A DNA stretch of 47,847 bases from IMG/VR virus record IMGVR_UViG_3300043596_000006, positions 1 to 47,847 of that record, one strand, 5' to 3'. Position numbers and translations under genes: made by a program. The DNA comes from a virus (taxonomy: Duplodnaviria > Caudoviricetes). Shown piece by piece: positions 23,843 through 47,533 of this stretch; position 1 is the stretch's first letter, and the number at the start of each line of letters is the position of its first letter. The notes beneath the pieces are model-generated. The model was not told where the DNA came from. It did no database searches and saw nothing but the letters and a program-made list of their open reading frames with translations.

Positions 23843-23857
23843 GAGGGGAGGTGGAAC

Positions 23858-26031: not shown

Positions 26032-26052
26032 ACAGCCATTGAGAGGATCAAA

Positions 26053-26202: not shown

Positions 26203-26219
26203 CACACCCTATAATGAGA
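26191..26219 (+). promoter_or_regulatory. Promoter-like motif, copy 5
   Basis: TCGCGTAATTAACACACCCTATAATGAGA. Confidence 0.85.
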
Positions 26220-26258
26220 CCCCTAACAAGGCCTCTTATTATTCAGACAAGGAGAACC

Positions 26259-26480: not shown

Positions 26481-26495
26481 TCTCCAATACATCTC

Positions 26496-26530
26496 AAAAC
26501 TAATCGGCTGAACGTGCCTTTTAGTTTTTG
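26496..26530 (+). terminator. Putative terminator
   Basis: AAAACTAA.GGC...GCC.TTAGTTTTT. Confidence 0.6.
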
Positions 26531-26549
26531 CCTACGAAGCGAGGTCGCA

Positions 26550-27200: not shown

Positions 27201-27343
27201 TGACGAACTCGCAGATACGTGAGGAAGTCAAGAAGGCATACAAGGAATCCCCGCAGTGGGCGGGAAAAGTCAACGCCATGACCGATGACCAAGTCACAGC
27301 CGTATTTATGCGGCTCAAACTCATGGGCATCATCAAAATCTGA
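27200..27343 (+). CDS. Hypothetical protein, 47 aa
   Basis: TAATG coupling; R..VKKAY...W..KV.AMTDDQV.AVF pattern. Confidence 0.75.
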   Translation: MTNSQIREEVKKAYKESPQWAGKVNAMTDDQVTAVFMRLKLMGIIKI

Positions 27344-27356
27344 AGGAGTAAGTAGG

Positions 27357-28274: not shown

Positions 28275-28275
28275 C

Positions 28276-29187
28276 ATGGACAAGCGAGTGGTCGCCATAA
28301 CCGCCAGTCTGGCTGCGGCTTCCGCGGCCGCTGGCGGAGTGGCAGGTTATTTCCTCGGTCTCAGCAAGGGTGTCTATAAGTTCCAGAAAGAGCTTACGGC
28401 GCAGTTGGCCGCGGCCGAGAAGGTTTTCATGATGAAGCATAAGGTTGGGATGTATCGCAGCCCCATCGACCTGGTCGAGAAGGTGGAGAACAACGTGCCG
28501 GTGGAGGGTCAGACTGAGGAGCAGATTGCCGCTCACGAGGCTGCGTATAACACGCGTAGTGCCGTCACCGACCAAGACCTTGGGAAAATCATCGAGAGCC
28601 TGCGCAAGCCTGAGGTAGGCGGTCGTCCGGGTAAGCCGATCATCGGTGGTCCCAATCAGGTCGAGTACAATGTCCCGGACAAGTCCAACGGCTCTCGTGT
28701 GATGCCGGAGGAGGAAGCTTCGCTTCTGGGCATGCGAGAAGAGCTCCAGGACGCCACTGACGACGTCAACCACAACCTCTTCGAGGAAGAGTCGGAGCAG
28801 CCGAACTACTCGGAGTACATCGAGGAGAACCCGCGGACCCGTGAGGCTCCGTACGTCATCACCACGACAGAGTTCTCCACGGGAGACGACAACATCGACG
28901 ACACATATTCCCTGGTGTGGTGGGACGAAGACGGTGTCGAGGGTATGGGTGTCCTCTCGGATATGAAGGACAACCCGATCGATGACATCGAGGCCACGGT
29001 CGGCTGGGACAACATGGAGAAGTTCGGGATGTGGTCTGGCAGCAAAAACGTCGTCTACATCCGCAATGAGCGTCTTCGCTGTGACTACGAGGTGGTCCGT
29101 CACCGGGGTAGCTACGCCGAGCATGTCGGTATCAAAGTGCAGTCGCAGCGGAAGCGCAAGTTGGCTCGTCGGGGCGCAGATGAGTGA
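28276..29187 (+). CDS. Hypothetical protein with N-terminal TM segment and acidic C-domain
   Basis: GAGGAG RBS; PYVIT..EF and VVYIRNERL..DYEV. Confidence 0.8.
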   Translation: MDKRVVAITASLAAASAAAGGVAGYFLGLSKGVYKFQKELTAQLAAAEKVFMMKHKVGMYRSPIDLVEKVENNVPVEGQTEEQIAAHEAAYNTRSAVTDQDLGKIIESLRKPEVGGRPGKPIIGGPNQVEYNVPDKSNGSRVMPEEEASLLGMREELQDATDDVNHNLFEEESEQPNYSEYIEENPRTREAPYVITTTEFSTGDDNIDDTYSLVWWDEDGVEGMGVLSDMKDNPIDDIEATVGWDNMEKFGMWSGSKNVVYIRNERLRCDYEVVRHRGSYAEHVGIKVQSQRKRKLARRGADE

Positions 29188-29711
29188 GTCCGCCGCTTGA
29201 TGAGTCATATTTCCAATGGCTCTACGGTCAAGTCGCCGATCCCGAAGAATCCAAGCCTTCCAGGACACACTGGGGGCTGCTGAAGCAGCTCTACACCAAG
29301 GAGTTCGCTTGGTTCGTCCCTAACGATGACAACCGAGCCGAGGATGGGAAGGCTCTTCGAGCGGAATTCATTGAGGAATCCGATATTCCCTATGTGGATG
29401 AATCATGGCTCACTCTCGGATGCTCGATGCTCGAACTTCTGATCGGATTGTCGCGGCGGCTCACCTTCCAAGCTGAGGGTGAGCCCCGCGACTGGTTCTG
29501 GCGACTAATCAAGAATGCTGGCCTGCATGTCCACAGCGATAGGCAAAAATTTCCGCGGGTGGACGTTGACCAGAAACTCGATGGGATAATCTGGAGGAAA
29601 TACGAGTATAACGGACATGGCGGACTGTTTCCGCTGAGTTACTCTTACGCTGACCAGACAGAAGTAGAACTCTGGTATCAACTGCAGGCATATTTGATCG
29701 AAAACTGTTGA
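29184..29711 (+). CDS. Hypothetical protein
   Basis: GTGA coupling; NDDNRAEDG..LR, CSMLELLIGLSRR, GGLFPL. Confidence 0.8.
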   Translation: MSPPLDESYFQWLYGQVADPEESKPSRTHWGLLKQLYTKEFAWFVPNDDNRAEDGKALRAEFIEESDIPYVDESWLTLGCSMLELLIGLSRRLTFQAEGEPRDWFWRLIKNAGLHVHSDRQKFPRVDVDQKLDGIIWRKYEYNGHGGLFPLSYSYADQTEVELWYQLQAYLIENC

Positions 29712-29726
29712 GCGGAGGGAGGTTAG

Positions 29727-32700
29727 ATGGATTTCTTTCATATAGGCACTCGTGATGCCAAGGGAGTCGTGGAGATATTTCCGGACTTCGTTGTCGGGCG
29801 TTCTAAGGATCTGATGGTTCAAGGTAAATCGTTCTATGCTATCTGGGACGAGAAGCAGAATCTGTGGTCTACGGACGAATACGATGTTCAACGTCTCGTT
29901 GACGAAGAACTGAGTGCCTACGCCGAGGGACAGAAACTCCTCGGTTTCGAACCTAAAGTGAAATACCTCCGCTCCTACGGTAATGGTGGATGGAAACAGT
30001 TTCGCAATTTCTTGACTAATGTCAGTGATAACAGTCATCAACTTGACGAGACACTGACTTTTGCCAATACAGAAACGAAGAAGTCCGATTACGTGTCTCG
30101 TAAGCTCCCATATTCCATTGAGAACAAGCCATGCCCGGCTTGGGACGAAGTAATTGGGACTTTGTATGACCCTGACGAGCGTACCAAGTTGGAATGGGCG
30201 ATCGGGGCAGTTATATCTGGGGACTCTAAGAAGATCCAGAAGTTCCTTGTCCTTTATGGTAGTGGTGGGACCGGCAAGGGAACTGCTCTAAGCGTAATCA
30301 AGAAGCTCTTCGAGGGTTACACGTCTACATTTGACGCGAAATCCTTGACCAGCAATGGCAGTAACTTCGCGATGGAGATATTCAAGAACCATCCGCTGGT
30401 GGCGATCCAGTTCGATGGGGACTTGTCGAAGATCGAGGACAACACCAAGCTTAACTCGATCGTGTCTCACGAGCCCATGACGATGAACGAGAAGTACAAG
30501 CCCACCTACACTTCTCATCTCAACGCATTCCTGTTCATGGGCACGAACAAGCCGGTCAGGATTACGGACGCCAAGTCGGGTCTTATTCGCCGATTGATCG
30601 ATGTCCATCCGTCAAAGCGTCTTATTCCGGCGAATCACTACAATACTCTAATGTCACAGATCGACTTTGAGCTAGGGGCAATCGCGAACCACTGCCTCGA
30701 AGTGTATCGTGACTTGGGTAAGAACTACTATAACAACTACAAGCCGCTTGAGATGCAACTGCAGACCGACGTGTTCTTCAACTTCATTGAGTCACATTTC
30801 GACATATTTAAGGAACAAGACGGCACGTCACTTAAGCAGGCTTACGCATTGTATAAGACCTACGTCCAAGAGAGTGGGCTTGAATTCTCTCTTGCGCAGC
30901 ATAAGTTCCGAGAAGAACTTCGTAATTACTTCGATACATTTGCGGATCGCACTGTGGTCGGGGGCGTTACGATGTTCAGTTATTATCAGGGTTTTAACGC
31001 GCAGGCGTTCAAAACCGTGGTAGGCAAGGATGTAACAGTCTTCTCCCTTGTTATGGACGAGACCATGTCCATATTCGATCTGGAAATGGCAGATCAACCA
31101 GCTCAGCTGGCCAAGGAAGACGGCACTCCGTCCGTGAGGTGGTCTCAGGTCAAGACTACGCTCGCGGTGGTCGATACCGCAGAAACGCACTACGTAATGG
31201 TTCCGCCAAACCATATTGTGATCGACTTCGATCTCAAGGACGATAATGGAAACAAATCTCTCGAACGAAATCTCGCAGCAGCTAGCGAGTGGCCTGCTAC
31301 GTATGGAGAACTCAGTCGAAGTGGAGCCGGGGTCCATCTGCATTACATCTACGACGGGCCTGTCGACCAACTCGCTTCGGTATACTCTGACGGGATTGAA
31401 GTCAAGGTATTTTCAGGGAATGCATCCCTGCGGAGGCGATTGTCCAAGTGCAATCACGTGCCGATTGCGACCCTGAGTACAGGCCTTCCCCTCAAGGAGA
31501 AGAAGATGCTCGATACCGAAACAATTAAGAGCGAGAAGGGTCTACGAGCCCTTGTCCTGAGGAACTTGCGTAAGGAGATTCATCCTGGAACCAAGCCTTC
31601 GCTCGACTTCATCAACCATATCCTGAACGAAGCGTTCGAATCCGGTATGGATTACGATCTCACTGACATGCGGTCAGCGATCGTGTCTTTTGCCAACAAC
31701 AGCACCAATCAGTTCATGGAGTGTCTCAAGACGGTTCAGAACATGAAGTTCAAGTCCGAAGGAGAGACGGCCCCTCAGGTCGTCAAGCTTAAGGACGATC
31801 GTCTGGTCTTCTTCGACATCGAGGTATTCCCAAACCTGTTCGTCATCTGTTGGAAATACCGAGGTACCGATCGGGACACCATCGTTCGTATGGTAAATCC
31901 CACGGCCTCGGAGGTCGAAGCACTTCTCGGTCTGAAACTGGTCGGGTTCAACAATCGTCGGTACGACAACCACATGATCTGGGCCCGACTCATGGGCTAC
32001 ACCAACGAGCAGTGCTACAAACTCTCGCTGAAGATCATCGAGGGCACTCAGACAGCACTGTTCGGCGAGGCGTACAACTTGTCCTGGGCCGATGTCTACG
32101 ACTTCAGTTCGGTCAAGCAGGGTCTCAAGCCGTTCCAGATCGACCTGGGCATATTCCACATGGAGCTGGATCTCCCTTGGGATGAGCCGGTTCCGGACGA
32201 TCGGGTTGAGGACGTTCTCGACTACTGCTGCAACGACGTCGAGAGTCTGGAGAAGGTCTTCGAGTCGCGTATCGGCGATTACAAAGCCCGTCAGATTCTG
32301 GCCGAACTGAGTGGTCTCACGATCAACGATACGACACAGCGTCACACCGCCAAGATTGTCTTCGGAGACGATCGCAATCCACAGCGGGAGTTCGTCTACA
32401 CGAAGCTCGACACCATATTCCCGGGGTACACATACGACCGCGGGAAGAGCACCTACAAGGGAGAAATCGTAGGGGAGGGAGGATACGTATATGCGGAACC
32501 TGGTATGTACGAGAACGTTGCTCTACTTGACGTGGCTTCGATGCACCCACAAAGTATCATCGAGCTCAATTGTTTTGGTGACTACACCGGGCGCTTCAAA
32601 GAGCTTGTCGACGCACGGTTGGCAATTAAGGCTAAAGACTACGAAAGGGCAAGTACTCTACTCGGAGGGAAGCTCGCCCCATATCTTGGGAGTCCTGATG

Positions 32701-33560
32701 ATTCAGATGCTCTCTCGTATGCCCTCAAGATCGTCATCAACATCGTCTACGGTCTGACGTCAGCCAAGTTCGACAATGCCTTCCGTGACCCGCGCAATCA
32801 CGACAATATCGTGGCCAAGCGTGGAGCTCTGTTCATGATCGACCTCAAGGAGTATGTCCAGAGTCTAGGGTTCACCGTCGCGCACATCAAGACGGACTCG
32901 ATCAAGATCCCGGACGCCACGCCCGAGGTCATCGAGCAGGTTACTCTGTTCGGGGAGAAGTACGGGTACAAGTTCGAGCACGAGGCTACCTACCAAGCGC
33001 TCTGTCTCGTGAACGACGCCGTATATATCGCCAGGCAGGACAAGATTGTCCCCATCGAAGGGACAAATCAGACAACCTGCGTCACCAAGTGGAAGGCTGT
33101 TGGAGCGCAGTTCCAGCACCCGTATGTCTTCAAGACTCTCTTCTCGGGAGAGCCCATCACGTTCGCGGACTACTGCGAGGCCAAGTCGGTAAAGCAGGGG
33201 TCAATGTATCTGGACTTCGACGGCATTCCTCAGCCGATGTTCGGCAAGGAAGGCATGCAGTTCGTCGGTCGAACAGGTCTATTCGTCCCAGTGACTGCGG
33301 AAGTCGGCGGGGCGATCTTGTGGAGGATCAAGGACGACAAGCAGTACGCGGTGTCCGGTACCAAGGGACATCGGTGGATGGAAGCCGAGATGGCGAAGAC
33401 CCTCACTGAGGATCAGATCGACATCGAGTACTTCTACAAGCTCGTCGACAAGGCCCGTGAGGACATCGAGTACTACGGCGAATGGGGTCGCTTCCTGGGA
33501 GAGGAGACTCACTACGGGGAGCACAAGTTCGAAGATCAACCACCTTGGGAGGATAAGTGA
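29727..33560 (+). CDS. Fused SF3 helicase - AEP primase - 3'-5' exonuclease - family B DNA polymerase
   Basis: Walker A YGSGGTGKGT and FMGTN; AEP VIDFD, SRSGAGVHLHY; exonuclease FFDIEV, GFNNRRYD, YCCND; PolB GGYV, DVASMHP, KIVINIVYG, KTDS. Confidence 0.9.
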   Translation: MDFFHIGTRDAKGVVEIFPDFVVGRSKDLMVQGKSFYAIWDEKQNLWSTDEYDVQRLVDEELSAYAEGQKLLGFEPKVKYLRSYGNGGWKQFRNFLTNVSDNSHQLDETLTFANTETKKSDYVSRKLPYSIENKPCPAWDEVIGTLYDPDERTKLEWAIGAVISGDSKKIQKFLVLYGSGGTGKGTALSVIKKLFEGYTSTFDAKSLTSNGSNFAMEIFKNHPLVAIQFDGDLSKIEDNTKLNSIVSHEPMTMNEKYKPTYTSHLNAFLFMGTNKPVRITDAKSGLIRRLIDVHPSKRLIPANHYNTLMSQIDFELGAIANHCLEVYRDLGKNYYNNYKPLEMQLQTDVFFNFIESHFDIFKEQDGTSLKQAYALYKTYVQESGLEFSLAQHKFREELRNYFDTFADRTVVGGVTMFSYYQGFNAQAFKTVVGKDVTVFSLVMDETMSIFDLEMADQPAQLAKEDGTPSVRWSQVKTTLAVVDTAETHYVMVPPNHIVIDFDLKDDNGNKSLERNLAAASEWPATYGELSRSGAGVHLHYIYDGPVDQLASVYSDGIEVKVFSGNASLRRRLSKCNHVPIATLSTGLPLKEKKMLDTETIKSEKGLRALVLRNLRKEIHPGTKPSLDFINHILNEAFESGMDYDLTDMRSAIVSFANNSTNQFMECLKTVQNMKFKSEGETAPQVVKLKDDRLVFFDIEVFPNLFVICWKYRGTDRDTIVRMVNPTASEVEALLGLKLVGFNNRRYDNHMIWARLMGYTNEQCYKLSLKIIEGTQTALFGEAYNLSWADVYDFSSVKQGLKPFQIDLGIFHMELDLPWDEPVPDDRVEDVLDYCCNDVESLEKVFESRIGDYKARQILAELSGLTINDTTQRHTAKIVFGDDRNPQREFVYTKLDTIFPGYTYDRGKSTYKGEIVGEGGYVYAEPGMYENVALLDVASMHPQSIIELNCFGDYTGRFKELVDARLAIKAKDYERASTLLGGKLAPYLGSPDDSDALSYALKIVINIVYGLTSAKFDNAFRDPRNHDNIVAKRGALFMIDLKEYVQSLGFTVAHIKTDSIKIPDATPEVIEQVTLFGEKYGYKFEHEATYQALCLVNDAVYIARQDKIVPIEGTNQTTCVTKWKAVGAQFQHPYVFKTLFSGEPITFADYCEAKSVKQGSMYLDFDGIPQPMFGKEGMQFVGRTGLFVPVTAEVGGAILWRIKDDKQYAVSGTKGHRWMEAEMAKTLTEDQIDIEYFYKLVDKAREDIEYYGEWGRFLGEETHYGEHKFEDQPPWEDK

Positions 33561-34027
33561 TGGCAATCGAAAGTATCCCTCTGTATCCGAAGATCGCAGG
33601 AGTTCCTATCCGTAAGGATGGACAGAAGATCGGAGAGGCTAGGATCGAAGCAAACGGGGAGATGATCATAAGCTTCCCTGATTCGATTCTGAGAGACATC
33701 GTGACGATGATCCGAGAGGGTTTCGTTGATGGGTTCTCCTTGTCTCCGAACGTAATTCCTGCAGAGCCGAGTAGTGTAAGAGAACGACCAACCATCCCTG
33801 TTCCTCCTCCTGGAGCATTTCTTGGTGGTGTAACGCATTTTTCTGTTACCGAAGAAGCTGTATTCGGAGACAACAACACGATCATCATGTCTGGGGCCTT
33901 CAAGGACCAGTCTGACGTACCTGTTTTTTGGGGTGACGGTGGGCAGGTCATCGGAAAGGCCCAAATTAAGGCTGACGGCACGGCCATATTCGACTTCTCT
34001 TCACACCCTGATGCGGAAGACGAATAG
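33557..34027 (+). CDS. Hypothetical protein with internal duplication
   Basis: GTGA coupling; two copies of VP...DG..IG.A.I..(N/D)G. Confidence 0.7.
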   Translation: MMAIESIPLYPKIAGVPIRKDGQKIGEARIEANGEMIISFPDSILRDIVTMIREGFVDGFSLSPNVIPAEPSSVRERPTIPVPPPGAFLGGVTHFSVTEEAVFGDNNTIIMSGAFKDQSDVPVFWGDGGQVIGKAQIKADGTAIFDFSSHPDAEDE

Positions 34028-34299
34028 TGGAGGAGAACCAACAACCGACGTATCTCGTGTTGGACGACGGTATGTCCTTCACGGAGCTGCCCATTCATCC
34101 AGAGTCGATCCCGATCATGAACGACGGATTCCTCGTTGGGACCGGTATTATTGGTAAGAATGGGCAGCTCACGATACACCTATTCGGACCCCAGGGCAGA
34201 GAGCTTGAGAGACTCTATGTCCTGGGTAAGTTCGACACCTTTTATTTCGCACCCAATCTCAAGGAGAGCACGGATGGACCTGCAGAAGCGGGCTCGTGA
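34027..34299 (+). CDS. Hypothetical protein
   Basis: TAGTG coupling; related IPIMNDGFLVGTGIIGKNG motif. Confidence 0.65.
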   Translation: MEENQQPTYLVLDDGMSFTELPIHPESIPIMNDGFLVGTGIIGKNGQLTIHLFGPQGRELERLYVLGKFDTFYFAPNLKESTDGPAEAGS

Positions 34300-34738
34300 T
34301 GCGGTCAAAGCCTATATCCTGCCCCATCTCGAAGTTACGGATGACATTCCGGAGTTCGAGACTTACATCGTCTGGTTCACCAAGACGCTGCAGAACTGGA
34401 AGGCACTGGTTAGCACTACGCTACCCGACCAGATGCACTACGAACTGACGTACAACGGGGATAAGGACGAGCTCTACATCGATGCGTACAAGAAGTTCAA
34501 CAACTCCAGGATCGAGAAGTTCGAGGCGTCATATCTTCCGAGTCTGACAAGGGATTCGGACATCATCAAAACACATGCTCAGACCTGGTATGTGGACCAG
34601 TTGGGTAAGATCGATTCATCGCACATGATGCGGTGGATTGAGAACGAATCTGTTCTGATTTGTTCAGCATGTAATTTATGTTTGTGTCACGCAGACCTTG
34701 TCGACCTCACTAGTCCCTGTGCTCGAAAGGTGTCCTGA
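34274..34738 (+). CDS. Conserved phage protein (DUF6275-like)
   Basis: YIVWFTKTLQNWKALVSTT...YELTYNGDKDELYIDAYKK; AAGGAG RBS. Confidence 0.8.
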   Translation: MDLQKRARDAVKAYILPHLEVTDDIPEFETYIVWFTKTLQNWKALVSTTLPDQMHYELTYNGDKDELYIDAYKKFNNSRIEKFEASYLPSLTRDSDIIKTHAQTWYVDQLGKIDSSHMMRWIENESVLICSACNLCLCHADLVDLTSPCARKVS

Positions 34739-34739
34739 C

Positions 34740-35312
34740 ATGGCTCTGCCTGATTCCCTGAAATTCGAAGGCCGCGATCTCCTGTTCCGTAACTTCGCCG
34801 GCAAGGAGGGTCAGTACAACAGCGAAGGCGATCGTAACTTCTGCCTCAAGCTGACCGAGCAGGAAGCCCTCCTCATGATCGAGGACGGTTGGAACGTCAA
34901 GTACCGGAAGCAGCAGGATCCGGACGACGAGCCACAGCCCTACCTGCCCATTACAGTCTCCACCAAGTTCAAGCCGTCTCGGATCGTCCTGATCACCGCG
35001 CGACGCGACGGAAGCCTTGGTCGAACGACCCTCACCGAAGACATGTTCATGTTCGTGGACTGGGTGGACGTTGCCTGGGCTGACCTGATCATTCGACCTT
35101 TCGCTTGGTCAATGCGGGGTAATAGCGGTGTCAAGGCCTACCTGCAGACCATCTACGTCCGAGTCAAGGACGACGAACTCGACATGAAGTACGCTGACGT
35201 GCCCGAGGTGGACATGGGTGGCCAGCAGCTGGAGCTGGAAGCCGCGGACCCGACCGTGATCGAGTACGACGGTCCGGTCGATGAGCGTGATGTTATGGAG
35301 CTGGAGCGATGA
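34740..35312 (+). CDS. ssb: Single-stranded DNA-binding protein
   Basis: LLFRNFAG...YNSEGDRNFC, GWNVK, GVKAYL; acidic C-terminal tail. Confidence 0.75.
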   Translation: MALPDSLKFEGRDLLFRNFAGKEGQYNSEGDRNFCLKLTEQEALLMIEDGWNVKYRKQQDPDDEPQPYLPITVSTKFKPSRIVLITARRDGSLGRTTLTEDMFMFVDWVDVAWADLIIRPFAWSMRGNSGVKAYLQTIYVRVKDDELDMKYADVPEVDMGGQQLELEAADPTVIEYDGPVDERDVMELER

Positions 35313-35557
35313 TGGGGATGTTCATTACCGCTCTGTCCTTCGAGGCGCTGCTCATTTTCCTGGCCATGATCATTGGCTATGTGCTGGGGACACTCAAGGA
35401 GAAGAACGAAGAACCCGGTGTCACGCACACCGAGAACACCTTGTTCACGGTGTTCCACGAGCTCCGAGCGGCGGGTATGACCGACAACGAGGCTCAGGAC
35501 ACGATCATGCGGATGCAGAACGAGGGTATCCTATTTCGGGAGGTAGCGAAGTCGTGA
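35309..35557 (+). CDS. Small membrane protein
   Basis: ATGA coupling; N-terminal TM; GILFRE. Confidence 0.75.
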   Translation: MMGMFITALSFEALLIFLAMIIGYVLGTLKEKNEEPGVTHTENTLFTVFHELRAAGMTDNEAQDTIMRMQNEGILFREVAKS

Positions 35558-35679
35558 CACTCTTTGAGATGCTAATGAAGGGTTTCTACACGCTCACCAT
35601 ATTCCTGATCGGTGCGGCCCTCCAAGTGATCGCCGTCATGCGAGAACAAGGATTCGATTTCAGAGAGGCATCGAAGTGA
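35554..35679 (+). CDS. Small membrane protein, 41 aa
   Basis: GGAGGT RBS; GTGA coupling at both ends; FYTLTIFLIGAALQVIAV. Confidence 0.65.
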   Translation: MTLFEMLMKGFYTLTIFLIGAALQVIAVMREQGFDFREASK

Positions 35680-35798
35680 CTTTCGAAGAACGAATTGTCC
35701 TTATCTTCGGCGCCCTCGTCTGGTTCGCGGTTCTGACCGTCGTTTTCAAGATCTCGCACGACCTTATTTCAAGCTGGTGGAAAGGTAGGAACAAGTGA
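35676..35798 (+). CDS. Small membrane protein, 40 aa (absent from the ORF track)
   Basis: GTGA coupling at both ends; MTFEERIVLIFGALVWFAVLTVVFKISHDLISSWWKGRNK. Confidence 0.7.
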   Translation: MTFEERIVLIFGALVWFAVLTVVFKISHDLISSWWKGRNK

Positions 35799-36286
35799 CA
35801 CCCTGGTTGTACGAACGCAAGGCTTTCCTCGTCCAGGCGGCTGCGGTCACTGCAGACAATATGCAGGATGTGGCCGAGTGGTGCGGAGGACAGGTTCTCG
35901 ACTGCCCTGACAAGTACCGACGCAACGGAAAGGATCGGTACGTCAAGGTCCCGATCAGTGTCCCTCCGACGATGGTGTTCAATGAGCGCCACGGGATGGC
36001 CATGATCGATGACTGGGTTGTCTTCGGCCAGTTCGGAGCTAGGGGTACGGAGGGCTGGAAGGTATATAAGCCGCGGGCCTTCGAGGCGGGCTTCTCGGCG
36101 GTGACTGGAACGAATCAGCCAAGTCCGGTCTCTCCAGAGATCAAAGCTCTCTTCGACGAGATCGAGCCACCTTGCGGTTTGATCGAACATACGCTCGACC
36201 ACGAGCCGTGTGTCCTTGGACAAGGGCACCTGGATGGCAAGCGCAAGGTCGGCTGTCGCAGCTTCTCGGATTACAAGTACGCCTAG
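35795..36286 (+). CDS. Hypothetical protein
   Basis: RK.F.V.A..VT..NM.DVAEWCGG and WKVY...AF; C-terminal Cys/His cluster. Confidence 0.8.
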   Translation: MTPWLYERKAFLVQAAAVTADNMQDVAEWCGGQVLDCPDKYRRNGKDRYVKVPISVPPTMVFNERHGMAMIDDWVVFGQFGARGTEGWKVYKPRAFEAGFSAVTGTNQPSPVSPEIKALFDEIEPPCGLIEHTLDHEPCVLGQGHLDGKRKVGCRSFSDYKYA

Positions 36287-36287
36287 G

Positions 36288-36316
36288 TCGCACGATTTAC
36301 ATGGGTTATAGTGAGA
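36288..36316 (+). promoter_or_regulatory. Promoter-like motif, copy 6
   Basis: TCGCACGATTTACATGGGTTATAGTGAGA. Confidence 0.8.
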
Positions 36317-36372
36317 GGAATGCTCTGTTACTATCCTGGATAGTTATATACAGAGCATTCCTTTCTCTTTTC
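36313..36372 (+). ncRNA. Candidate small hairpin RNA or attenuator directly after motif copy 6
   Basis: GGAATGCTCTGT/ACAGAGCATTCC 12-bp perfect stem with inner CTATCC/GGATAG, followed by a pyrimidine run. Confidence 0.5.
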
Positions 36373-36401
36373 CATTTTCCGTACTACCTAAGGAGACCCC
36401 T

Positions 36402-37424
36402 ATGACCGACGATGAGATCATCGGCGAGCTCGTGGGCAAATACTACACTATGGACGCCGCGACGGAGAAGCTCCTGTTCCAGGGCAAGGAGCTCCAGAAC
36501 GGCATGACCTGCCTGGTGGCTCCGTCCACCTGGCGCCGGACCCTGGTTGAAAACCCGGGCGAGGAGGAGTTGGAGCTGATCCTGCAACGCAATCGCTGGT
36601 TCGTGGTCTCGCACCTGGAGGTCACCAATCTGTCGGTCGCGTTCATCGCGACGTACTCAGACGGCCACATGGTGAAGTGGGAGATGGTCAACAGCATCCC
36701 CTGGTACGTCAAGCTGGACTCGATCCCAGTCGAGCCGGAGCCGGCGTACCGAAGCGGTGTAATCGTCGGTCAGTACTCGGCTCGTGACAACATCGATGGA
36801 ACGACGTCGATCTACATCACGGAGCAGGACGGCGCCTTCACCGAGTTCATCGTCGGTGCGTTCTCTGGCCGTGACGTGGTGTCGCAGCTCCTCGACAAGA
36901 CGCTGCCTCCGGTCAACCTGAAGCACTTGTTTCAGGATACCAACAACCAGGCGAGGATTTCTCGTAACGATCCGGCGTGGGCGATTCAGAACCTGTCGAG
37001 GCGTCACAACCCCACTCCGCCGTCTGCAAAGGACTTCGGGTGGGCTGAGGATCCGGACGCGACACGTACCGACATCCCGGTCTACAAGGAGCCGGTGATC
37101 GAGGAAATCGATCCGGAGCACGAGACGCTGGTTCTTCCGTTGAAGGATCAGACTCGGTGTACGTCGACCATGAACGGTCTCGTGGATCCTCGGATCGTGC
37201 GTCGGTGCGCCAAGGATTTGGGTCACGTTGAGCAGGGCGACCTTGACCACATGTCTAAGAACGGGGTTAAGTGGACTGAGAATCCTCAGCCAGTCGTGAA
37301 ATGCGGCTTCACTTGGAATAACACCGCTCTAGGTGGGGTCGAGCGAATCTATATCTGCGCCGATCCTGCCGGTCACAAGAGCCCGCTCCACGTGGACGCG
37401 ACCGGAAGCCAGTACCACGAATAA
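36402..37424 (+). CDS. Hypothetical multi-domain protein with two C-terminal Cys/His motifs
   Basis: AAGGAG RBS; two C...C....GH...H repeats. Confidence 0.85.
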   Translation: MTDDEIIGELVGKYYTMDAATEKLLFQGKELQNGMTCLVAPSTWRRTLVENPGEEELELILQRNRWFVVSHLEVTNLSVAFIATYSDGHMVKWEMVNSIPWYVKLDSIPVEPEPAYRSGVIVGQYSARDNIDGTTSIYITEQDGAFTEFIVGAFSGRDVVSQLLDKTLPPVNLKHLFQDTNNQARISRNDPAWAIQNLSRRHNPTPPSAKDFGWAEDPDATRTDIPVYKEPVIEEIDPEHETLVLPLKDQTRCTSTMNGLVDPRIVRRCAKDLGHVEQGDLDHMSKNGVKWTENPQPVVKCGFTWNNTALGGVERIYICADPAGHKSPLHVDATGSQYHE

Positions 37425-37435
37425 GGAGCTATCGT

Positions 37436-37588
37436 ATGTATTGGTGGGAACAAATCGCAATCTATATGGCGATAGGAGCTATCGTCGCAGAGATCGGTAA
37501 GAGACTCAAGATCAGCATTTTCTCGATACTGGTAATAGCTATGGCTATCTGTGTTATTGCCAATCAGACGTTCAACATCTCCGGGTAA
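37436..37588 (+). CDS. Small 2-TM protein, 50 aa (absent from the ORF track)
   Basis: AAGGAG RBS; MYWWEQIAIYMAIGAIVAEIGKRLKISIFSILVIAMAICVIANQTFNISG. Confidence 0.7.
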   Translation: MYWWEQIAIYMAIGAIVAEIGKRLKISIFSILVIAMAICVIANQTFNISG

Positions 37589-37598
37589 GGACTTAGCC

Positions 37599-37793
37599 AT
37601 GAAAGCTGCACTTGCTCAAGCGCGTCGGTACGGAGCGCAGCGCCGTGACCTCGAAGACCGCGGCTTGGAGGAGGACTATCAGCGCGTGCACAAGGCGTGG
37701 CGTGTCTTCTGGAAGCAGTTCAACAGTGATCTCGTCACTTATGCGGACTACAGCAAGTTGATCGATGCGTTCTACGAAGGCTATCTGGCCTGA
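37599..37793 (+). CDS. Hypothetical protein, 64 aa
   Basis: AAGGA RBS; ends AFYEGY. Confidence 0.75.
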   Translation: MKAALAQARRYGAQRRDLEDRGLEEDYQRVHKAWRVFWKQFNSDLVTYADYSKLIDAFYEGYLA

Positions 37794-37920
37794 CGATTGC
37801 GGATTGGACATGGGTGCTTGAATCACTCGTGTCCTTCCCGGAAGCGTCCCAGCCCCACTTATCTGAGGAGAACGTCATGTACGGTAAGGCCACCATGCTT
37901 CAGGTCCCTGGCCAGGCGTA

Positions 37921-38028
37921 ATGCAAGACTATCTACATCATCACATCTGGTCGATCTTCTGGTTGGCCTTCGCGGTGGTTGTGATAGGCCTCGTCTATTA
38001 CGGCGGAGGGAGACGGCCTAAGGACTGA
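37921..38028 (+). CDS. Tiny TM peptide, 35 aa
   Basis: MQDYLHHHIWSIFWLAFAVVVIGLVYYGGGRRPKD; TAATG coupling to a 14-codon ORF at 37877. Confidence 0.55.
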   Translation: MQDYLHHHIWSIFWLAFAVVVIGLVYYGGGRRPKD

Positions 38029-38102
38029 TCCACTCATGTGAGGCATGGGGATACCACGGGCCCGTGCCTCGCCAGAGAGTATCAGCTCTCGTTCGAGAGA
38101 GG

Positions 38103-38180
38103 ATGATCATGTTATATGTTGGTCTCGCATCGGCACTCGTATGTGTCGTTCTGATCATCATCTTCCGTAATAAGGACTAA
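38103..38180 (+). CDS. Tiny TM peptide, 25 aa
   Basis: GAGAGG upstream; MIMLYVGLASALVCVVLIIIFRNKD. Confidence 0.55.
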   Translation: MIMLYVGLASALVCVVLIIIFRNKD

Positions 38181-38184
38181 CCTC

Positions 38185-38271
38185 ATGGAATGGTGGATGT
38201 GGGTAATCATCATCGGCCTGTGTCTTGTTTGTATATTGGGCATAGGTGGTAGCCAAGGTCCTGAGGACTGA
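38185..38271 (+). CDS. Tiny TM peptide, 28 aa
   Basis: AAGGA RBS; MEWWMWVIIIGLCLVCILGIGGSQGPED. Confidence 0.55.
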   Translation: MEWWMWVIIIGLCLVCILGIGGSQGPED

Positions 38272-38357
38272 CGGTTGCGGTTTGTGGACGTGGGGAAGCA
38301 CGTCTGCATTCCGGAGTTGTCAAGAGACTTCTCTGCGCAGATAGGTAAGGGAGCAAC

Positions 38358-38822
38358 ATGCGTACTAAGATTGTCGCGTTCCTTGCGGCCATCGCCCTCA
38401 TCGTGGTCGGGTTCGCCCCGGCTGCGAATGCGGACGGCCTCGGGCCGGCTCAGCCGAACACCGGATGTGTCAACCAGGCACTAGGTGGAGCGGTCGAGAA
38501 CATCTGGCTGAACGGCGAGCAGGAATACGCGTCGCGCTGGGTTATCAGCAACCACGCGTGTGCCGGTACTCAGCTCGGGATGATCTACGAGTCGAACCTC
38601 GGTGGGGGCTATTGCCAGAATGGCAACCCCATCTACGTCCGGATCCAGTTCTTAAATGGAGTTCTTGGTGGTGAGACTGCCACGGCTTGTGGTGGGACTT
38701 GGATCCAGATCGGCTCTGAGAAGGACGTCAACGGTCCGATGTTCAGGGTTCTTGCGCGCATCGTCGGCTACCCGCAGGTAGTGGGATCGGCTCAGTACGG
38801 ATACGGAACCGTCCGGAGCTAG
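38358..38822 (+). CDS. Secreted protein with signal peptide
   Basis: MRTKIVAFLAAIALIVVGFAPAANA signal peptide (AxA cleavage); four Cys; AAGGGAG RBS. Confidence 0.85.
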   Translation: MRTKIVAFLAAIALIVVGFAPAANADGLGPAQPNTGCVNQALGGAVENIWLNGEQEYASRWVISNHACAGTQLGMIYESNLGGGYCQNGNPIYVRIQFLNGVLGGETATACGGTWIQIGSEKDVNGPMFRVLARIVGYPQVVGSAQYGYGTVRS

Positions 38823-38845
38823 GGGTCTCGTAAGAAAGTGCGTTA

Positions 38846-38887
38846 GGGGCGATCTGAGGGGCCTTAACGGGTGTCTCAGGTCGCCCC
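38846..38887 (+). terminator. Stem-loop after the secreted protein gene
   Basis: GGGGCGATCTGAG/CTCAGGTCGCCCC. Confidence 0.55.
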
Positions 38888-38923
38888 GACTCGGGTTATG
38901 TATTTGACTTGTAGGGAGGTCTG

Positions 38924-39091
38924 ATGTACCAGCACGACACGATCGAGATCCGTTGCGAGGACTACGAGGATGGTGGGTGCTCAGGACCTCCGACATTAGG
39001 GCCGTGTCCCTACTGCGAGGACATCAATCACAAGACTATCCTCGTGTGGCTCTGCAAGGCACACCAACACGAGAGGAGTATGGACATATGA
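38924..39091 (+). CDS. Cys-rich hypothetical protein, 55 aa (absent from the ORF track)
   Basis: GGGAGGT RBS; C...C...CPYC...C..H; ATGA coupling. Confidence 0.7.
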   Translation: MYQHDTIEIRCEDYEDGGCSGPPTLGPCPYCEDINHKTILVWLCKAHQHERSMDI

Positions 39092-39294
39092 GATTGTGGA
39101 AATGGCTGTGGAAGGCGCAGTTGTTGCCTTGGAACAGATGTCGGGCGGCTCTTGAAAAGAAGGGTGACTCGGCGTACTACGGACAGTGCGATCGTCCTCG
39201 CAATCATCCAGGGTGGCATGCCTTGGAGCGGGGATTCGACATCGTGTGGTTCTCGACTCGACTGATCGACATGAATAATGAATGGAGTGACTGA
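39088..39294 (+). CDS. Hypothetical protein with Cys/His motif
   Basis: GAGGAG RBS; C...CDRPRNHPGWH. Confidence 0.7.
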   Translation: MRLWKWLWKAQLLPWNRCRAALEKKGDSAYYGQCDRPRNHPGWHALERGFDIVWFSTRLIDMNNEWSD

Positions 39295-39539
39295 TGGAAG
39301 TACCAATCAAGTTCATGGTGGAGCGCTTGGCTAAGCTCCCCAATCACGCATTCATCATCTCTGACGGCTCCAAGGTCTACGCCGCGGTTAAGGGTGAACT
39401 GGTAATCTTCACTGGTCAGCCTGGCGAGTTCAATGCCATGACCGAGTATGAGATTGGCGCATTCATCCGAGCGAACTGGGACAAACAGGGCACTGCTGTT
39501 GCGCCTAGTGACACTCCCGACTTCGGAGGCGCCCGGTGA
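39294..39539 (+). CDS. Hypothetical protein
   Basis: TGATG coupling; GGAG RBS. Confidence 0.7.
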   Translation: MEVPIKFMVERLAKLPNHAFIISDGSKVYAAVKGELVIFTGQPGEFNAMTEYEIGAFIRANWDKQGTAVAPSDTPDFGGAR

Positions 39540-39853
39540 AGAGAATTCCTGATCGAATTCGCGAAGAAGATCGGCAATGCTATAGCTTTAACCAATTCGC
39601 AGATATTGGATTTCTGCACTACATCAACACGGAGCTCCTCGGTCCGCTCGGATACGCCCTTTGTCTGGACTATGCGGATGGGTACGAGGAGCCTACTGGG
39701 TGGTCTCTGCATGGTTTCGAGGGGCCGATCGAGGTTGACGTAGACGAGAAAACTAAGAAGAAGTACAGGGGCACCATGCGCCTTCTGTTCGCTATGGCCA
39801 AAGACCATGGTCGAATGCCCTTGGAGGAGCACACAGAGTCCAACCTCGCGTAG
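39536..39853 (+). CDS. Hypothetical protein
   Basis: GGAGG RBS; G.L.YIN...L.PLGYAL. Confidence 0.75.
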   Translation: MKRIPDRIREEDRQCYSFNQFADIGFLHYINTELLGPLGYALCLDYADGYEEPTGWSLHGFEGPIEVDVDEKTKKKYRGTMRLLFAMAKDHGRMPLEEHTESNLA

Positions 39854-39874
39854 GGAACACGGGCTATAATGAGA
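39846..39874 (+). promoter_or_regulatory. Promoter-like motif, copy 7
   Basis: TCGCGTAGGGAACACGGGCTATAATGAGA; shares CTATAATGAGACCCCTACGAAAGGA (25 nt) with copy 3. Confidence 0.85.
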
Positions 39875-39894
39875 CCCCTACGAAAGGACCTACC

Positions 39895-43563: not shown

Positions 43564-43592
43564 GCGCAGAAAAAACGCGGGATATAATAGAA
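43564..43592 (+). promoter_or_regulatory. Promoter-like motif, degenerate copy 8
   Basis: GCGCAGAAAAAACGCGGGATATAATAGAA keeps the CGCR / AC / TATAAT spacing. Confidence 0.6.
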
Positions 43593-43609
43593 GGGATAGG
43601 ATGTGCCTT

Positions 43610-43909
43610 ATGGTTTCCAGAGAAGGGCCGTATAAAACGCGTTTGAAGCACCGAATCGAGGGAGAACTCCCTGGTAGTGTGATTGTCAAACTCGACGCGG
43701 CTGATCTACAAGGCATCCCTGATCTACTCGTCCTCTTTGGTGAAAGATGGGGTAGTCTAGAAGTCAAGTTCAGCTTGCGAGCTCGCATTCAACCTAATCA
43801 ACCCTATTGGGTTGAACGTTTGAATGCCATGTCGTTCGCAGCCTTCATCTGCCCCGAGACCGAAGAGGAGGTTCTCCATGAACTTTACGCGGCGCTCCAG
43901 CCTCGTTGA
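43610..43909 (+). CDS. VRR-NUC domain nuclease
   Basis: QGIPDLLVL...LEVK...QPNQ..W. Confidence 0.85.
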   Translation: MVSREGPYKTRLKHRIEGELPGSVIVKLDAADLQGIPDLLVLFGERWGSLEVKFSLRARIQPNQPYWVERLNAMSFAAFICPETEEEVLHELYAALQPR

Positions 43910-44438
43910 CGTCCATGCGCTCATGAGCCCCAGTGATTATCACTGGGTCAACTACGATGATGATAAGTTCGACAAATCGTTCTACACAAGGATGGATGCC
44001 GCCCGAGGAACACGACTCCATGAGTTGGCGCACCGTCTGATCCAGGAGCGAGTCAAGCTTCCTGATTTGCAGAAGACATTGAACATGTACGTGAACGATG
44101 GTGTTGGATTTAAGATGGAATCTGAGTATGTGCTCTACTACTCGGACAATTGTTTTGGAACTACAGACAGTTTCATATTCCGAAACAACACCCTTCGAAT
44201 TCACGATCTGAAGAATGGAAAGACACCAGCTTCGATGATGCAGTTGAAGATCTACGCTGCATTGTTCTGTCTAGACTTCAAGATGAACCCTTTCGATATT
44301 CAAATTGAACTTCGCATTTACCAGAATGATCTCATCGACGTGCTTTCTCCGGATGCTGATGAGATTTTCGGTTTAATGGAGAAGATCAAGTATTTCAGCA
44401 GGAGGATCGACGCCCTTAAAGAGGAGGTGAGCTCGTGA
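43878..44438 (+). CDS. PD-(D/E)xK (Cas4-like) exonuclease
   Basis: HA.MSPS, RGTRLH, E...FGTTD, IHDLKNG and QLKIYA. Confidence 0.85.
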   Translation: MNFTRRSSLVDVHALMSPSDYHWVNYDDDKFDKSFYTRMDAARGTRLHELAHRLIQERVKLPDLQKTLNMYVNDGVGFKMESEYVLYYSDNCFGTTDSFIFRNNTLRIHDLKNGKTPASMMQLKIYAALFCLDFKMNPFDIQIELRIYQNDLIDVLSPDADEIFGLMEKIKYFSRRIDALKEEVSS

Positions 44439-47149
44439 ACATTGACGAAAAGGATTACCTGGCCCACTTCGGAATCCTCCGTAAATCGGGTCGTTATCCT
44501 TGGGGATCCGGCGAAGACACTGCTACACGATCTCGTGACTTCCTCGGAATGGTGTCCGATCTCAAGAAGCAGGGCATGAGTGATGTCGAGATCGCCAAAG
44601 GTATGGCTCTCTACACCGAAAACGGAAAGCCCTGGACCACATCCGACTTCCGTAATGCCAAGACCATCGCCAACAACGAGCAGACACAAGCCGATATTGG
44701 TCGTGCTCAGCGGTTGAGAGATAAGGGTCTATCCAACGTCAAAATCGGCGAAGCTATGGGCCGCAACGAATCGTCCGTTCGCGCTCTATTGGCTCCGGGT
44801 AAAGCTGAGAAAGCTGACGCTCTCAAAGCCACTTCGAACATGCTTCGCGGTGCGATCGCCGATAAGAAGTATATCGATGTCGGAGTTGGTACTGAGTTTT
44901 CGATGGGCATTAGTAGTACCAAGTTGAAGACCGCGGTGGCCACCCTTGAAGATGAGGGTTATAAGATCCACTATATTAAGGTCAAGCAGCTTGGTACTGG
45001 CAAGGAGACATCGATCAAGGTTCTGGCTGCCCCTGGTATTACTTACAGTGAGGTCAGTAAGAATCGTGATCAGATCTCTCTGGTCGGTCAGCGTTCATTG
45101 GATGCTGGTCATTCATTCATCGGAATTAAACCCCCTCTTGATGTCCATCCCGATCGTGTAGCTATTCGCTATGCTGAGCAAGGTGGCGCCGCAGCTGATG
45201 GCGTGATGTATGTTCGTCGTGGTGTGCCGGATATTTCACTAGGAGCAGCGAACTATGCGCAGGTTCGCGTTCAAGTCGGTGGAACTCACTACATCAAGGG
45301 CATGGCTATCTACAAGGATGATCTGCCTGCCAGTGTGGATATCCTGTTCAACACGAACAAGAGCAACACAGGCAGCAAACTCGACGCCCTGAAGCCACTT
45401 AAGACAGTGGGCAAGGATGGACCCATCGATACCGAGAACCCATTCGGTACCTTCGTTGATCAGATTCTCAACGAAAAGGGCGAAGTATCATCAGCTATGA
45501 ATAAGGTCAACGATGAGGGCGATTGGGACAAATGGTCTCGCACCCTATCGTCTCAGTTCTTGTCTAAGCAGCACCCAGCTCTCGCTAAGACACAGCTGAA
45601 TATGACCTTCGAGAAGAAGCAGCAGGAGCTTGAAGGAATCAAGGCATTGACGAATCCTCTAGTTCGTAAGACTCTTCTTGATAAGTTCGCTGATGGTGCA
45701 GACTCATCGTCTGTTCATCTGAAGGCTGCTGCTCTTCCTCGTCAGGCGACTAAGGTTATTCTCCCAGTTAACTCGATGAAGCCCGGCGAAGTCTACGCTC
45801 CGAGCTTCAACAACGGAGAACGAGTCGTTCTGATTCGTCACCCTCACGGCGGAACCTTCGAGATCCCTGAGTTGGTAGTCAACAACAAGAACGCAGAAGC
45901 AAGGAAGCTACTCGGAACCAGCACAACAGATGCTATCGGTATTCACAGCAGTGTCGCTAACAAGCTCTCTGGCGCAGACTTTGATGGCGATACAGTTCTG
46001 GTTATTCCGAATGACAGAGGTGCTGTTAAGCATGCCCCTGCTTTGAAAGAGCTAGGCAACTTCGATGCTAAGGCTGATTACCCACATTATGAGGGTATGA
46101 AAGTAATGCATAAGAAAGACGTCCAAGCTGAGATGGGTGGTATTTCTAACCTCATCACCGACATGACGATTCAAGGTGCAAACAATGGCGAACTAGCGCG
46201 CGCAGTCCGCCATTCAATGGTCGTCATTGATGCTGAGAAGCACAAGCTTGATTACAAGAGATCTGCCATTGACAATGGAATTGCTCAGCTTAAGAAGCGC
46301 TATCAAGGTGGAGCAACAGCTGGCGCAAGCACTCTCATTTCGAGGGCCAAGTCAGAGGTCCGAATACCTGATCGGAAAGCACGAACAGTTGGCAAGGGTG
46401 GGCCAATTGATCTTAAGACTGGAGAGAAGAAGTTCGAGGAAACTGGTGTCACTACAGTTCGCCGTAAAATCAACAAGAAGACTGGTGAGGTAACTCTAGA
46501 AGATACCCCCAAGCTGATCAAGTCGGTGAAGCTGGCTGAGACTACTGATGCCCATACCCTGTCGTCCGGTACTCGTATTGAACAGGTGTATGCAGATCAC
46601 TCGAACAAGCTCAAGGCATTGGCTAATACAGCACGCCTTGCCTCTGTCCATACCAAGACTACAAATTACTCCCCCTCTGCTAGCAAAGTCTATGCTTCTG
46701 AAGTAGCGTCCCTTAGTCAGAAGTTGACCACCGCTCTTGAGAACGCCCCCCGTGAGAGACAAGCCCAGCTCCTAGCAAACGCCATCCTCTCCCAAAAGAG
46801 GGCGGCTAATCCGGAGATGGAACCATCTGACGTCAAGAAGCTCAAAGGTCACGCGCTTGCAGAGGCCCGTATCAGAACCGGTGCCGATAAGCAACGCATT
46901 GAGATCACAGATCGCGAGTGGACTGCAATTCAGGCTGGTGCAATCAGTAACGAACGTCTAGGTCAGATCTTGGCTAACACAGATCTAGACCGCATCAAGG
47001 AGTTGGCTACACCACGCACTATAACAACCATGACAAGTGACAAGAAGCTCCGTGCTGAGGCCATGCTCATGTCTGGGTACACCCAGTCTGAGGTAGCAGC
47101 ACAGCTAGGTGTCTCTGTCAGTACCCTACAGAGAAGTGTTAGTGGGTGA
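44435..47149 (+). CDS. Putative single-chain two-barrel (YonO/RdRP-like) RNA polymerase with HTH domains and LxHFG leader
   Basis: AQVR...IKGM, VVLIRHPH, LSGADFDGDTV (DFDGD at 45977-45991), ISNLI and VVIDAEK in the order seen in two-barrel polymerases; HTH-like segments at both ends. Confidence 0.8.
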   Translation: MNIDEKDYLAHFGILRKSGRYPWGSGEDTATRSRDFLGMVSDLKKQGMSDVEIAKGMALYTENGKPWTTSDFRNAKTIANNEQTQADIGRAQRLRDKGLSNVKIGEAMGRNESSVRALLAPGKAEKADALKATSNMLRGAIADKKYIDVGVGTEFSMGISSTKLKTAVATLEDEGYKIHYIKVKQLGTGKETSIKVLAAPGITYSEVSKNRDQISLVGQRSLDAGHSFIGIKPPLDVHPDRVAIRYAEQGGAAADGVMYVRRGVPDISLGAANYAQVRVQVGGTHYIKGMAIYKDDLPASVDILFNTNKSNTGSKLDALKPLKTVGKDGPIDTENPFGTFVDQILNEKGEVSSAMNKVNDEGDWDKWSRTLSSQFLSKQHPALAKTQLNMTFEKKQQELEGIKALTNPLVRKTLLDKFADGADSSSVHLKAAALPRQATKVILPVNSMKPGEVYAPSFNNGERVVLIRHPHGGTFEIPELVVNNKNAEARKLLGTSTTDAIGIHSSVANKLSGADFDGDTVLVIPNDRGAVKHAPALKELGNFDAKADYPHYEGMKVMHKKDVQAEMGGISNLITDMTIQGANNGELARAVRHSMVVIDAEKHKLDYKRSAIDNGIAQLKKRYQGGATAGASTLISRAKSEVRIPDRKARTVGKGGPIDLKTGEKKFEETGVTTVRRKINKKTGEVTLEDTPKLIKSVKLAETTDAHTLSSGTRIEQVYADHSNKLKALANTARLASVHTKTTNYSPSASKVYASEVASLSQKLTTALENAPRERQAQLLANAILSQKRAANPEMEPSDVKKLKGHALAEARIRTGADKQRIEITDREWTAIQAGAISNERLGQILANTDLDRIKELATPRTITTMTSDKKLRAEAMLMSGYTQSEVAAQLGVSVSTLQRSVSG

Positions 47150-47391
47150 TCATGATGAGTACCACCATGCTTACCACAGTGGACAACCCGTATGATCCAC
47201 TCACTGAGTTCACTGACTGGTACGCCTTTGACGAGGCACATGGATACCATACATCAGGTATGCTTGCGAGGATCATGAAGACGTCTGATGAGCTGTCTGA
47301 TGCAGACAGAGAATCAGAGAGAATTCGTGCGATAAAAGAAGTTTTAGAAGAAAATGTTCTTGGACTTTGGAGAGTTTTCGAGTCTCCTTGA
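47146..47391 (+). CDS. Conserved hypothetical protein
   Basis: MLTTVDNPYDP..EF.DWYAFD...GY; start uncertain. Confidence 0.75.
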   Translation: MIMMSTTMLTTVDNPYDPLTEFTDWYAFDEAHGYHTSGMLARIMKTSDELSDADRESERIRAIKEVLEENVLGLWRVFESP

Positions 47392-47414: not shown

Positions 47415-47491
47415 GGGGGAGGGGGTCTTCGCAAAAGTAGACCCCTTCCTGCATCGCCGCTGTCCTCAAAAAATCCCCGGCGGGCATTTTT
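47415..47491. other. Candidate genome end (cos) region
   Basis: Non-coding junction between the right arm and the packaging module; G-rich/C-rich inverted repeat followed by CGCCGCTGT (47455-47463). Confidence 0.55.
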
Positions 47492-47533
47492 CCCCGGAGC
47501 TTTCCAACCCCAGCACGAGAAGGAGATCAGACA

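Follow-up and report, generated by a model that had tools for sequence, protein, structure and literature searches.

The 47,847-nt virus genome analysed here (IMG/VR record IMGVR_UViG_3300043596_000006, the whole of which is called the window) encodes a 904-amino-acid protein that is almost certainly a polymerase, as judged from its motifs and its structural model, and that by analogy with tested phage enzymes very probably uses DNA as template. We propose, with about even confidence, that it acts as a virion-carried, sigma-independent RNA polymerase of early and middle genes. Its gene (44435..47149, + strand, GTG start) was assigned by the PHROG 4291 profile (E=0, 1262 bits, residues 2-903), by homology to orf75 of Lactococcus phage 1706 and by the model. 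The genome is of the siphophage type, and the window is a circular assembly with a 215-nt terminal overlap, contained in soil metagenome sequencing runs, with no RNA run among those listed. Long open reading frames (ORFs) lie almost all on the + strand, a single two-barrel polymerase gene was found, and an integrase is absent from the 47 ORFs scanned.

A single-chain two-barrel polymerase had already been read from this ORF in the original prediction, and the frame and all motifs used there were recovered: YAQVR starts at 45254, YIKGM at 45290, AIGI at 45932, GGISNLITD at 46136 and SMVVIDAEKH at 46214, while GERVVLIRHPH covers 45815-45847 (RHPH at 45836) and the metal-binding DFDGD loop 45977-45991. 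Conservation was analysed in an alignment of 148 of 150 matches, all representatives of clusters at 50% identity; the two omitted homologs exceed 1100 residues and both have DFDGD. Twelve residues are invariant in 148/148 (Q276, R278, K288, G289, R468, P470, D515, D517, G518, D519, D599 and K602), and D255 is Asp in 146 and Glu in 2 sequences. The motifs are not a product of chance. The three Asp residues of the loop, whose conservation the original prediction had named as a check, are thus kept throughout, which argues against a dead enzyme. D255, R278 and K288 follow each other in the same order as D709, R738 and K743 of QDE-1 (PMC2919709), a correspondence of order along the sequence only. 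The colinearity with YonO claimed earlier holds for RxP and DxDGD, which align in register when the family profile is compared with a profile of seven YonO-like proteins (87%, pairwise E 4e-6, 78 columns; reversed control 0.1%). This seven-member profile was required, since the direct comparison with YonO was not significant (1.6%). In Pfam, residues 505-604 gave a sub-threshold match to the RNA-dependent RNA polymerase (RdRP) family PF05183 (E 3.9e-4, 19.7 bits versus a cut-off of 23.8).

The structural model is in line with this assignment. The AlphaFold2 model, built with 76 homologs, reached a mean predicted local distance difference test (pLDDT) of 86.3 and a predicted template modelling score of 0.77, with residues 1-33 mostly disordered. 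A VIA-align fold search of the model against 48,161 solved chains returned single-chain two-barrel polymerases as the best three matches: QDE-1 (Z 15.9, root-mean-square deviation (rmsd) 4.3, 370 residues aligned, model 230-737 versus QDE-1 678-1186), RDR2 (Z 14.7, rmsd 4.3, 365 aligned) and gp62 of Thermus phage P74-26 (Z 13.5, rmsd 7.0, 361 aligned). Cellular and viral largest subunits follow below them, with Rpb1 and beta-prime barrels at Z 9-10.6, and gp96 of phage P23-45 aligns over 262 residues (Z 10.1, rmsd 4.8). The two-barrel fold of the original prediction is therefore supported by the model, which indicates two double-psi barrels in one active-site region, the first being seen within the whole model only. 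This first, beta-like barrel region (45152..45514, + strand, approximate borders) carries D255-G256, Q276-x-R278 and K288-G289 and is delimited by conservation, by strands at 242-306 and 356-360 and by the QDE-1, RDR2 and gp62 alignments, which start at 220-231. The second, beta-prime-like barrel (45740..46018, +) contains R468-x-P470 and the D515-F-D517-G-D519 loop; isolated double-psi barrels align with residues 436-527 (Z 9.2-9.5, rmsd ~2), and the YonO-like profile falls here as well. Downstream, the modelled helices 560-603 (46112..46243, +), which include NLITD and VIDAEKH, may be the equivalents of bridge helix and trigger elements; the Rpb1 and beta-prime alignments span 429-627.

Around this core lie domains that point to duplex DNA. 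HTH-like (helix-turn-helix) stretches begin at 44573, 44726 and 47075, and those predicted at both termini were borne out by Pfam and fold matches. Two N-terminal HTH-like modules (residues ~47-76 and ~85-119; 44573..44791, +) include a Pfam HTH_38 match at 85-114, and a DeoR DNA-binding domain aligns with an HTH span of 78-128 (Z 7.4, rmsd 1.7, 49 aligned). The first module carries a 9-residue insertion (57-65) that is missing in nearly all relatives. A winged-helix domain (~128-213; 44816..45073, +), overlooked in the original prediction together with the N-terminal tag described below, resembles that of TFIIIC (Z 8.2, rmsd 2.6, 84 aligned), and the C-terminal HTH (47015..47146, +) is matched by Pfam HTH_23 (873-900, E 4.7e-7) and by the Tc3 HTH (861-904, Z 6.8, rmsd 1.8, 44 aligned). 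E112, R116, S894 and T897 are conserved in the recognition helices, and I104 is kept as well. A sequence search of the PDB returned no match for the protein itself and HTH matches only for its profile, the NCBIfam search of the protein gave no polymerase family, and the ESM Atlas contained, besides the family's own clusters, an RdRP cluster at 0.89 that we regard as a lead only. A shared fold is no proof of function, and we infer DNA-dependent activity from YonO and from gp64 and gp96 of P23-45.

What these domains might read is suggested by a repeat search of the window. The motif CGC-N7-ACA-N6-TATA(A/G)TGAGA occurs in eight copies, all on the + strand between 22.5 and 43.6 kb, within the non-structural arm, and none in the first 22.5 kb; shuffled sequences gave a mean of 0.25 and a maximum of 1 copy. 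One copy lies just 5' of the polymerase operon (43564..43593, +), and the seven others, within 22534..39875 (+), start at 22534, 22956, 23309, 23569, 26191, 36288 and 39846, most of them right before a ribosome-binding site (RBS) and start codon. With an iterated matrix, 201 plus-strand and 0 minus-strand matches were found. Among 66 non-identical, partly closely related loci, 97 sites fall in 368 kb upstream of the polymerase gene versus 1 in 321 kb downstream. The motif is present in phages of Streptomyces, Gordonia, Lactococcus and Faecalibacterium (12 matrix copies in Kerry, 7 in HotFries, 8 in P118, 9 in D_HF4_2 and four in the 40.6 kb examined of 1706). The 340-residue ORF at 36402-37424, located 3' of a copy, has no PHROG or Pfam match. 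Recombination boundaries, as which a cluster AU 32-bp repeat has been read for Giantsbane, were set aside as the main role, since all copies share one orientation and precede RBSs; this presumes that repeat and motif are identical.

To avoid circularity, a matrix made from the eight window sites only, with the '-11' column masked, was applied to 74 loci with 2 kb of upstream sequence, grouped into 27 lineages at <85% identity. In 20/27 lineages (chance ~3.7) the top-scoring site lies 780-1050 nt upstream of the polymerase frame, versus 8/27 for best minus-strand sites, none above 8.8 bits. Numbering TATAAT as -12 to -7, we found the '-11' position of these 20 operon sites to be A in 6, T in 11 and G in 3. 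In contrast, T occupies '-12' in 19 of them, '-10' in 20 and '-7' in 19. In FP_oengus the TA pair is missing in 6/6 plus-strand motif copies. Primary sigma factors require this pair and its '-11' A, and 0/3 of the motif copies within 34000-47847 score as a sigma-70 promoter. Conservation of the motif across two host phyla combined with the loss of a base that sigma needs makes a phage protein the best reader. Given its conserved recognition-helix residues, the polymerase is the evident candidate, and we think that it probably reads CGC-N7-ACA...TxTxATGA as promoter. The motif itself is in print; a link to a phage enzyme was not found in the open-access literature.

Evidence for packaging comes from the N-terminus. 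Residues 6-26 (44450..44512, +) form a disordered tag (L-A-H-F-G...SGRYPWG; L-x-H-x-G) in a region with pLDDT <50 for most of residues 1-33, and we consider it a candidate capsid-loading and prohead-protease site. It is present in 142/150 representatives, and in 140 the tag His is found among the first 40 residues. Gene calls can hide the tag: the automatic call of this very gene (protein record P0002, 866 residues) begins at residue 39 and so loses the tag, and that of HotFries gp56 likewise starts late. The head cluster of the window encodes three DUF7211 proteins (2182-2775, 4520-5002 and 4999-5433, together 2182..5433, +), two of which share their initial six residues with the tag of the polymerase. 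Searched against 5,615 ORFs, a profile of the polymerase N-terminus found DUF7211 peptides as its 11 best non-polymerase matches and as 20 of the 29 listed, and the tag and DUF7211 peptide profiles recover each other weakly but selectively. DUF7211 (PF23847) is not among the 20 Pfam families matching the polymerase, only the first half of the motif being common to both, and the open-access literature yielded no papers with DUF7211. The protease-capsid fusion (6743..8797, +) contains a spacer rich in hydrophobic-x-His, with 5/7 His of the window phage in this context. In the capsid spacers of 7 phages 40/46 His are so placed, versus 51/212 in ten other proteins, and in 6/7 phages one such site lies within ~10 residues before the capsid core, as would be expected of prohead-protease sites. 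A hydrophobic-x-His triplet is also present at residues 16-18 of the portal protein (5461-6771), possibly a further site. In the 1706 record EU081845, the label 'structural protein' is given to orf75 and also to orf7, a DUF7211 protein. Fifteen genes with structural, portal, capsid or tail labels occur in the 40.6 kb of 1706 that was viewed, a number that agrees with the 15 virion proteins that Garneau reportedly identified by mass spectrometry in 2008. One homolog core, that of P0147, lacks the tag but is fused to a portal protein. From these features, we lean towards a polymerase that is packed into the virion head by its N-terminal tag.

Combining promoter and tag, we favour a course in which the enzyme would be loaded into the prohead by the tag, trimmed and then injected. 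Its HTH and winged-helix domains would then read the phage CGC-N7-ACA...TxTxATGA promoters without host sigma, so that the non-structural right arm with its small membrane-protein genes and replication genes would be transcribed, and transcription of the enzyme's own operon would close a positive loop.

Several observations weigh against this scheme. The late structural operon has no motif copy, and the polymerase gene lies directly before it, as yonO does in SPbeta. FP_oengus has an integrase, and induction of a prophage needs a start read by the host, for which a virion enzyme is unusable. In 7/27 lineages the best site lies outside the interval; two of these have strong sites just beyond it and five, 1706 and P118 included, have none within 2 kb. 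Most copies of the hexamer in the window and in Kerry, a Gordonia phage, read TATAAT or TATAGT without a mismatch, and PMC10868162 describes the cluster DJ motif as containing a sigma-70 -10 box, a reading also given in PMC9671010. The tags resemble each other weakly and over a short stretch (11 columns at 89%; best single match E 0.028; median 1.15 bits). A p of 1e-15 for the His placement is overstated, given the homology of the spacer sites among the 7 phages, and cleavage there is our inference. The structural label is also carried by two untagged right-arm proteins of 1706 (orf62 and orf71) and may thus extend to proteins that co-purify, which lowers its weight, and two fused homologs (P0147 and P0182) lack both end HTHs, which are thus not needed in every context. 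For the window phage, polymerase activity, transcription from the motif and presence in the virion are predictions from sequence and model.

The most serious alternative, which we consider unlikely, is a late polymerase like YonO. The repeats would be read by the RNA polymerase of the host, perhaps aided by a phage activator that binds the CGC/ACA boxes, and the enzyme made in this way would go on to transcribe the structural operon, starting at a promoter close to cos. An arrangement of this kind is seen at T4 middle promoters, where a phage activator works with the host RNA polymerase. The place of the gene shortly before cos and the structural operon, the strong conservation of the cos region, the near-perfect TATAAT in actinophages and the need of a motif-free structural arm for some driver all fit this scenario, as does the single start from which YonO transcribes late genes (PMC5467207). 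It is at odds with the loss of the '-11' A at the operon site in 14/20 lineages and at 6/6 FP_oengus sites, and with the failure of all three copies in 34000-47847 to score as sigma-70 promoters; nor would a late enzyme have an obvious need for a tag common to head-cluster proteins or for a 'structural' label. Early/middle action from the virion and a late role are compatible with each other.

Less likely still, a non-virion early/middle polymerase might read the motif, starting from weak transcription by the host and then amplifying itself, with the tag as a relic or in another role. The same promoter evidence applies to it (the counts over loci, the held-out test and FP_oengus), temperate members require a host-read start in any case, and gp64 of P23-45 is a non-virion enzyme (10.1101/2022.12.01.518664) whose homolog gp62 is among the top fold matches; against it stand the tag in 142/150 representatives, the label of 1706 orf75 and the portal fusion of P0147. 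That the protein is no transcription enzyme at all appears improbable, whether it is taken as a polymerase that copies RNA, as a priming enzyme or as mainly a DNA-binding protein of the head: the label 'RNA-dependent RNA polymerase', the fold matches QDE-1 and RDR2, the co-transcription with nucleases and the role left open for YonO-like proteins in the 2010 review (PMC2919709) could be taken in favour of this view, but the genome already encodes a primase-polymerase, the tested phage relatives transcribe DNA, the HTH and winged-helix domains suggest action on duplex DNA and the Asp triad is invariant.

The family is large and has been noticed before. A tblastn search found 250 phage records (249 with at least 80% coverage), with Arthrobacter (95), Gordonia (55), Streptomyces (54), Lactococcus (13) and others as hosts. 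The closest phage record is HotFries gp56 (58.5% identity), 1706 orf75 shares 38% identity over 1009 columns, and metagenomic relatives reach 73%; at E <1e-30 there are 883 clusters at 50% identity, and at 90% identity at least 7,999 clusters. The expectation that annotation would hide the enzyme behind an HTH label applies to SEA-PHAGES and GenBank, where it is mostly the 'HTH domain-containing protein' of clusters BI, AM, AU, AW, DJ, CC and EL, a family that includes AUV56548.1 of FP_oengus. It fails for PHROG 4291 and many RefSeq records ('RNA-dependent RNA polymerase') and for FP_oengus ('putative RNA polymerase'). In print, 10.1101/842583 reports DxDGD, an HTH at either end and a 95.68% HHpred match to PF05183 and regards the protein as a possible RNA polymerase, and PMC2919709 placed 1706 among five YonO-like families, separate from YonO. 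The identification as polymerase is right and had been predicted in print; links to motif, tag and virion do not appear in the excerpts of these two family descriptions, and the open-access literature yielded no biochemical test of the family.

Some members are rearranged. P0147 and P0182 carry the polymerase core without tag or end HTHs behind ~1,050 other residues, which in P0147 begin with a portal domain (PF04860) of a type unlike the gene layout of the clade. In a quick tree of 41 rows they are sisters nested among full-length soil members (Shimodaira-Hasegawa-like approximate likelihood ratio test (SH-aLRT) 100). Each is known from a single predicted protein that may be an assembly error, and neither was recovered when metagenome contigs and plasmids were scanned. 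In P0129 and P0136 a 2H phosphoesterase-like domain (PF13563) is fused before the position of the tag.

Upstream of the polymerase, its operon contains a VRR-Nuc-type endonuclease (43601-43909, PHROG 93) and a Cas4/RecB-like exonuclease (43824-44438, PHROG 3953; both within 43601..44438, +), in the same order as in HotFries, Kerry and FP_oengus. A small acidic protein (47146..47391, +, PHROG 4303) overlaps the polymerase stop and follows directly 3' in 87/89 loci with enough downstream DNA. It may be an accessory factor or cofactor, in which case 'single-chain' would hold for the catalytic core only. With the cos region next, the gene order of the family (nuclease, exonuclease, polymerase, small conserved gene, cos) is complete. 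This conserved region (47424..47500, strand unassigned), between the polymerase and structural operons, contains a G-run/C-run inverted repeat, a cos-like 9-mer (47455-47463), at whose equivalent the HotFries and Kerry records end, and a second block past it, kept across the clade. It could hold terminase sites or a late promoter; a variant of the motif as late promoter is unsupported, as the matrix finds nothing there. Elsewhere, the helicase frame (41174-42703) has an in-frame Ser/Thr-rich insertion of ~110 residues (~42020-42350), missing in HotFries, Kerry, FP_oengus and D_HF4_2, over which another + frame has two small ORFs (ending at 42192; 42196-42417), as if a small-gene cassette had been overprinted. 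Two major-tail-protein paralogs (PHROG 2645; 9448-10314 and 10906-11700) and two DUF6353 paralogs (24019-24768 and 27285-28274) are found as in related phages, and the primase-DNA polymerase fusion of 1277 residues (29727-33560, PHROG 4210) is typical of the clade.

In its fullest form our proposal is tentative, and we hold it a little more doubtful than not: a His-ending leader, also found on other cargo, would direct a 100-kDa two-barrel RNA polymerase with its own promoter-reading domains into the head; the prohead protease would trim the enzyme, which would start host-independent transcription from one promoter kept across phages of Actinobacteria and Firmicutes. If true, such a transcription kit, being portable, would account for the spread of the clade between phyla, and in the leader we would have a new signal for capsid loading. 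The system would also be a very small factor-independent two-barrel transcription system, bear on promoter recognition before sigma and offer an orthogonal expression tool for actinomycetes and lactococci. This predicted enzyme is found in about 250 records of sequenced phages and, in metagenomes, as proteins in the thousands, and candidate promoter and tag make its biology directly and simply testable.

Among known systems, the 1706 ORF75 family (PHROG 4291) has the same HTH-core-HTH layout, DxDGD and gene order before cos, the window polymerase differing in sequence alone and in the 9-residue insertion of its first HTH-like segment. The short N-terminal leaders of T4, which target its internal proteins and Alt to the capsid, likewise carry a prohead-protease motif and mark head cargo; unlike them the candidate motif here ends in His, and we draw this parallel as an analogy only. 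With YonO of Bacillus phage SPbeta the enzyme shares a single chain, a similar size, RxP and DxDGD in register and a gene adjoining the late operon; it differs from the YonO family proper in that YonO is absent from the 250 tblastn records and gives no significant direct sequence match. YonO, a tested relative, transcribes DNA as a late enzyme with undefined promoter and cofactor needs (PMC5467207). In PMC2919709, DNA-dependent two-barrel RNA polymerases are defined partly by Switch 2 and funnel residues, yet YonO is DNA-dependent without most conserved domains, so these residues are not required. Like P74-26 gp62 and the P23-45 enzymes gp64 (non-virion) and gp96 (virion), the window protein is by prediction a compact phage two-barrel enzyme, at 13-16% identity; gp64 and gp96 use their own promoter motifs (10.1101/2022.12.01.518664), for which a candidate exists here, and gp96 enters the virion as a fusion with the tape-measure protein of the tail, whereas we suppose a short head-cargo tag. 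Neurospora QDE-1 and plant RDR2 (PF05183) provide the best fold matches and the sub-threshold Pfam match; they differ in being eukaryotic silencing enzymes with 12-15% identity, whose alignments exclude the terminal HTH domains.

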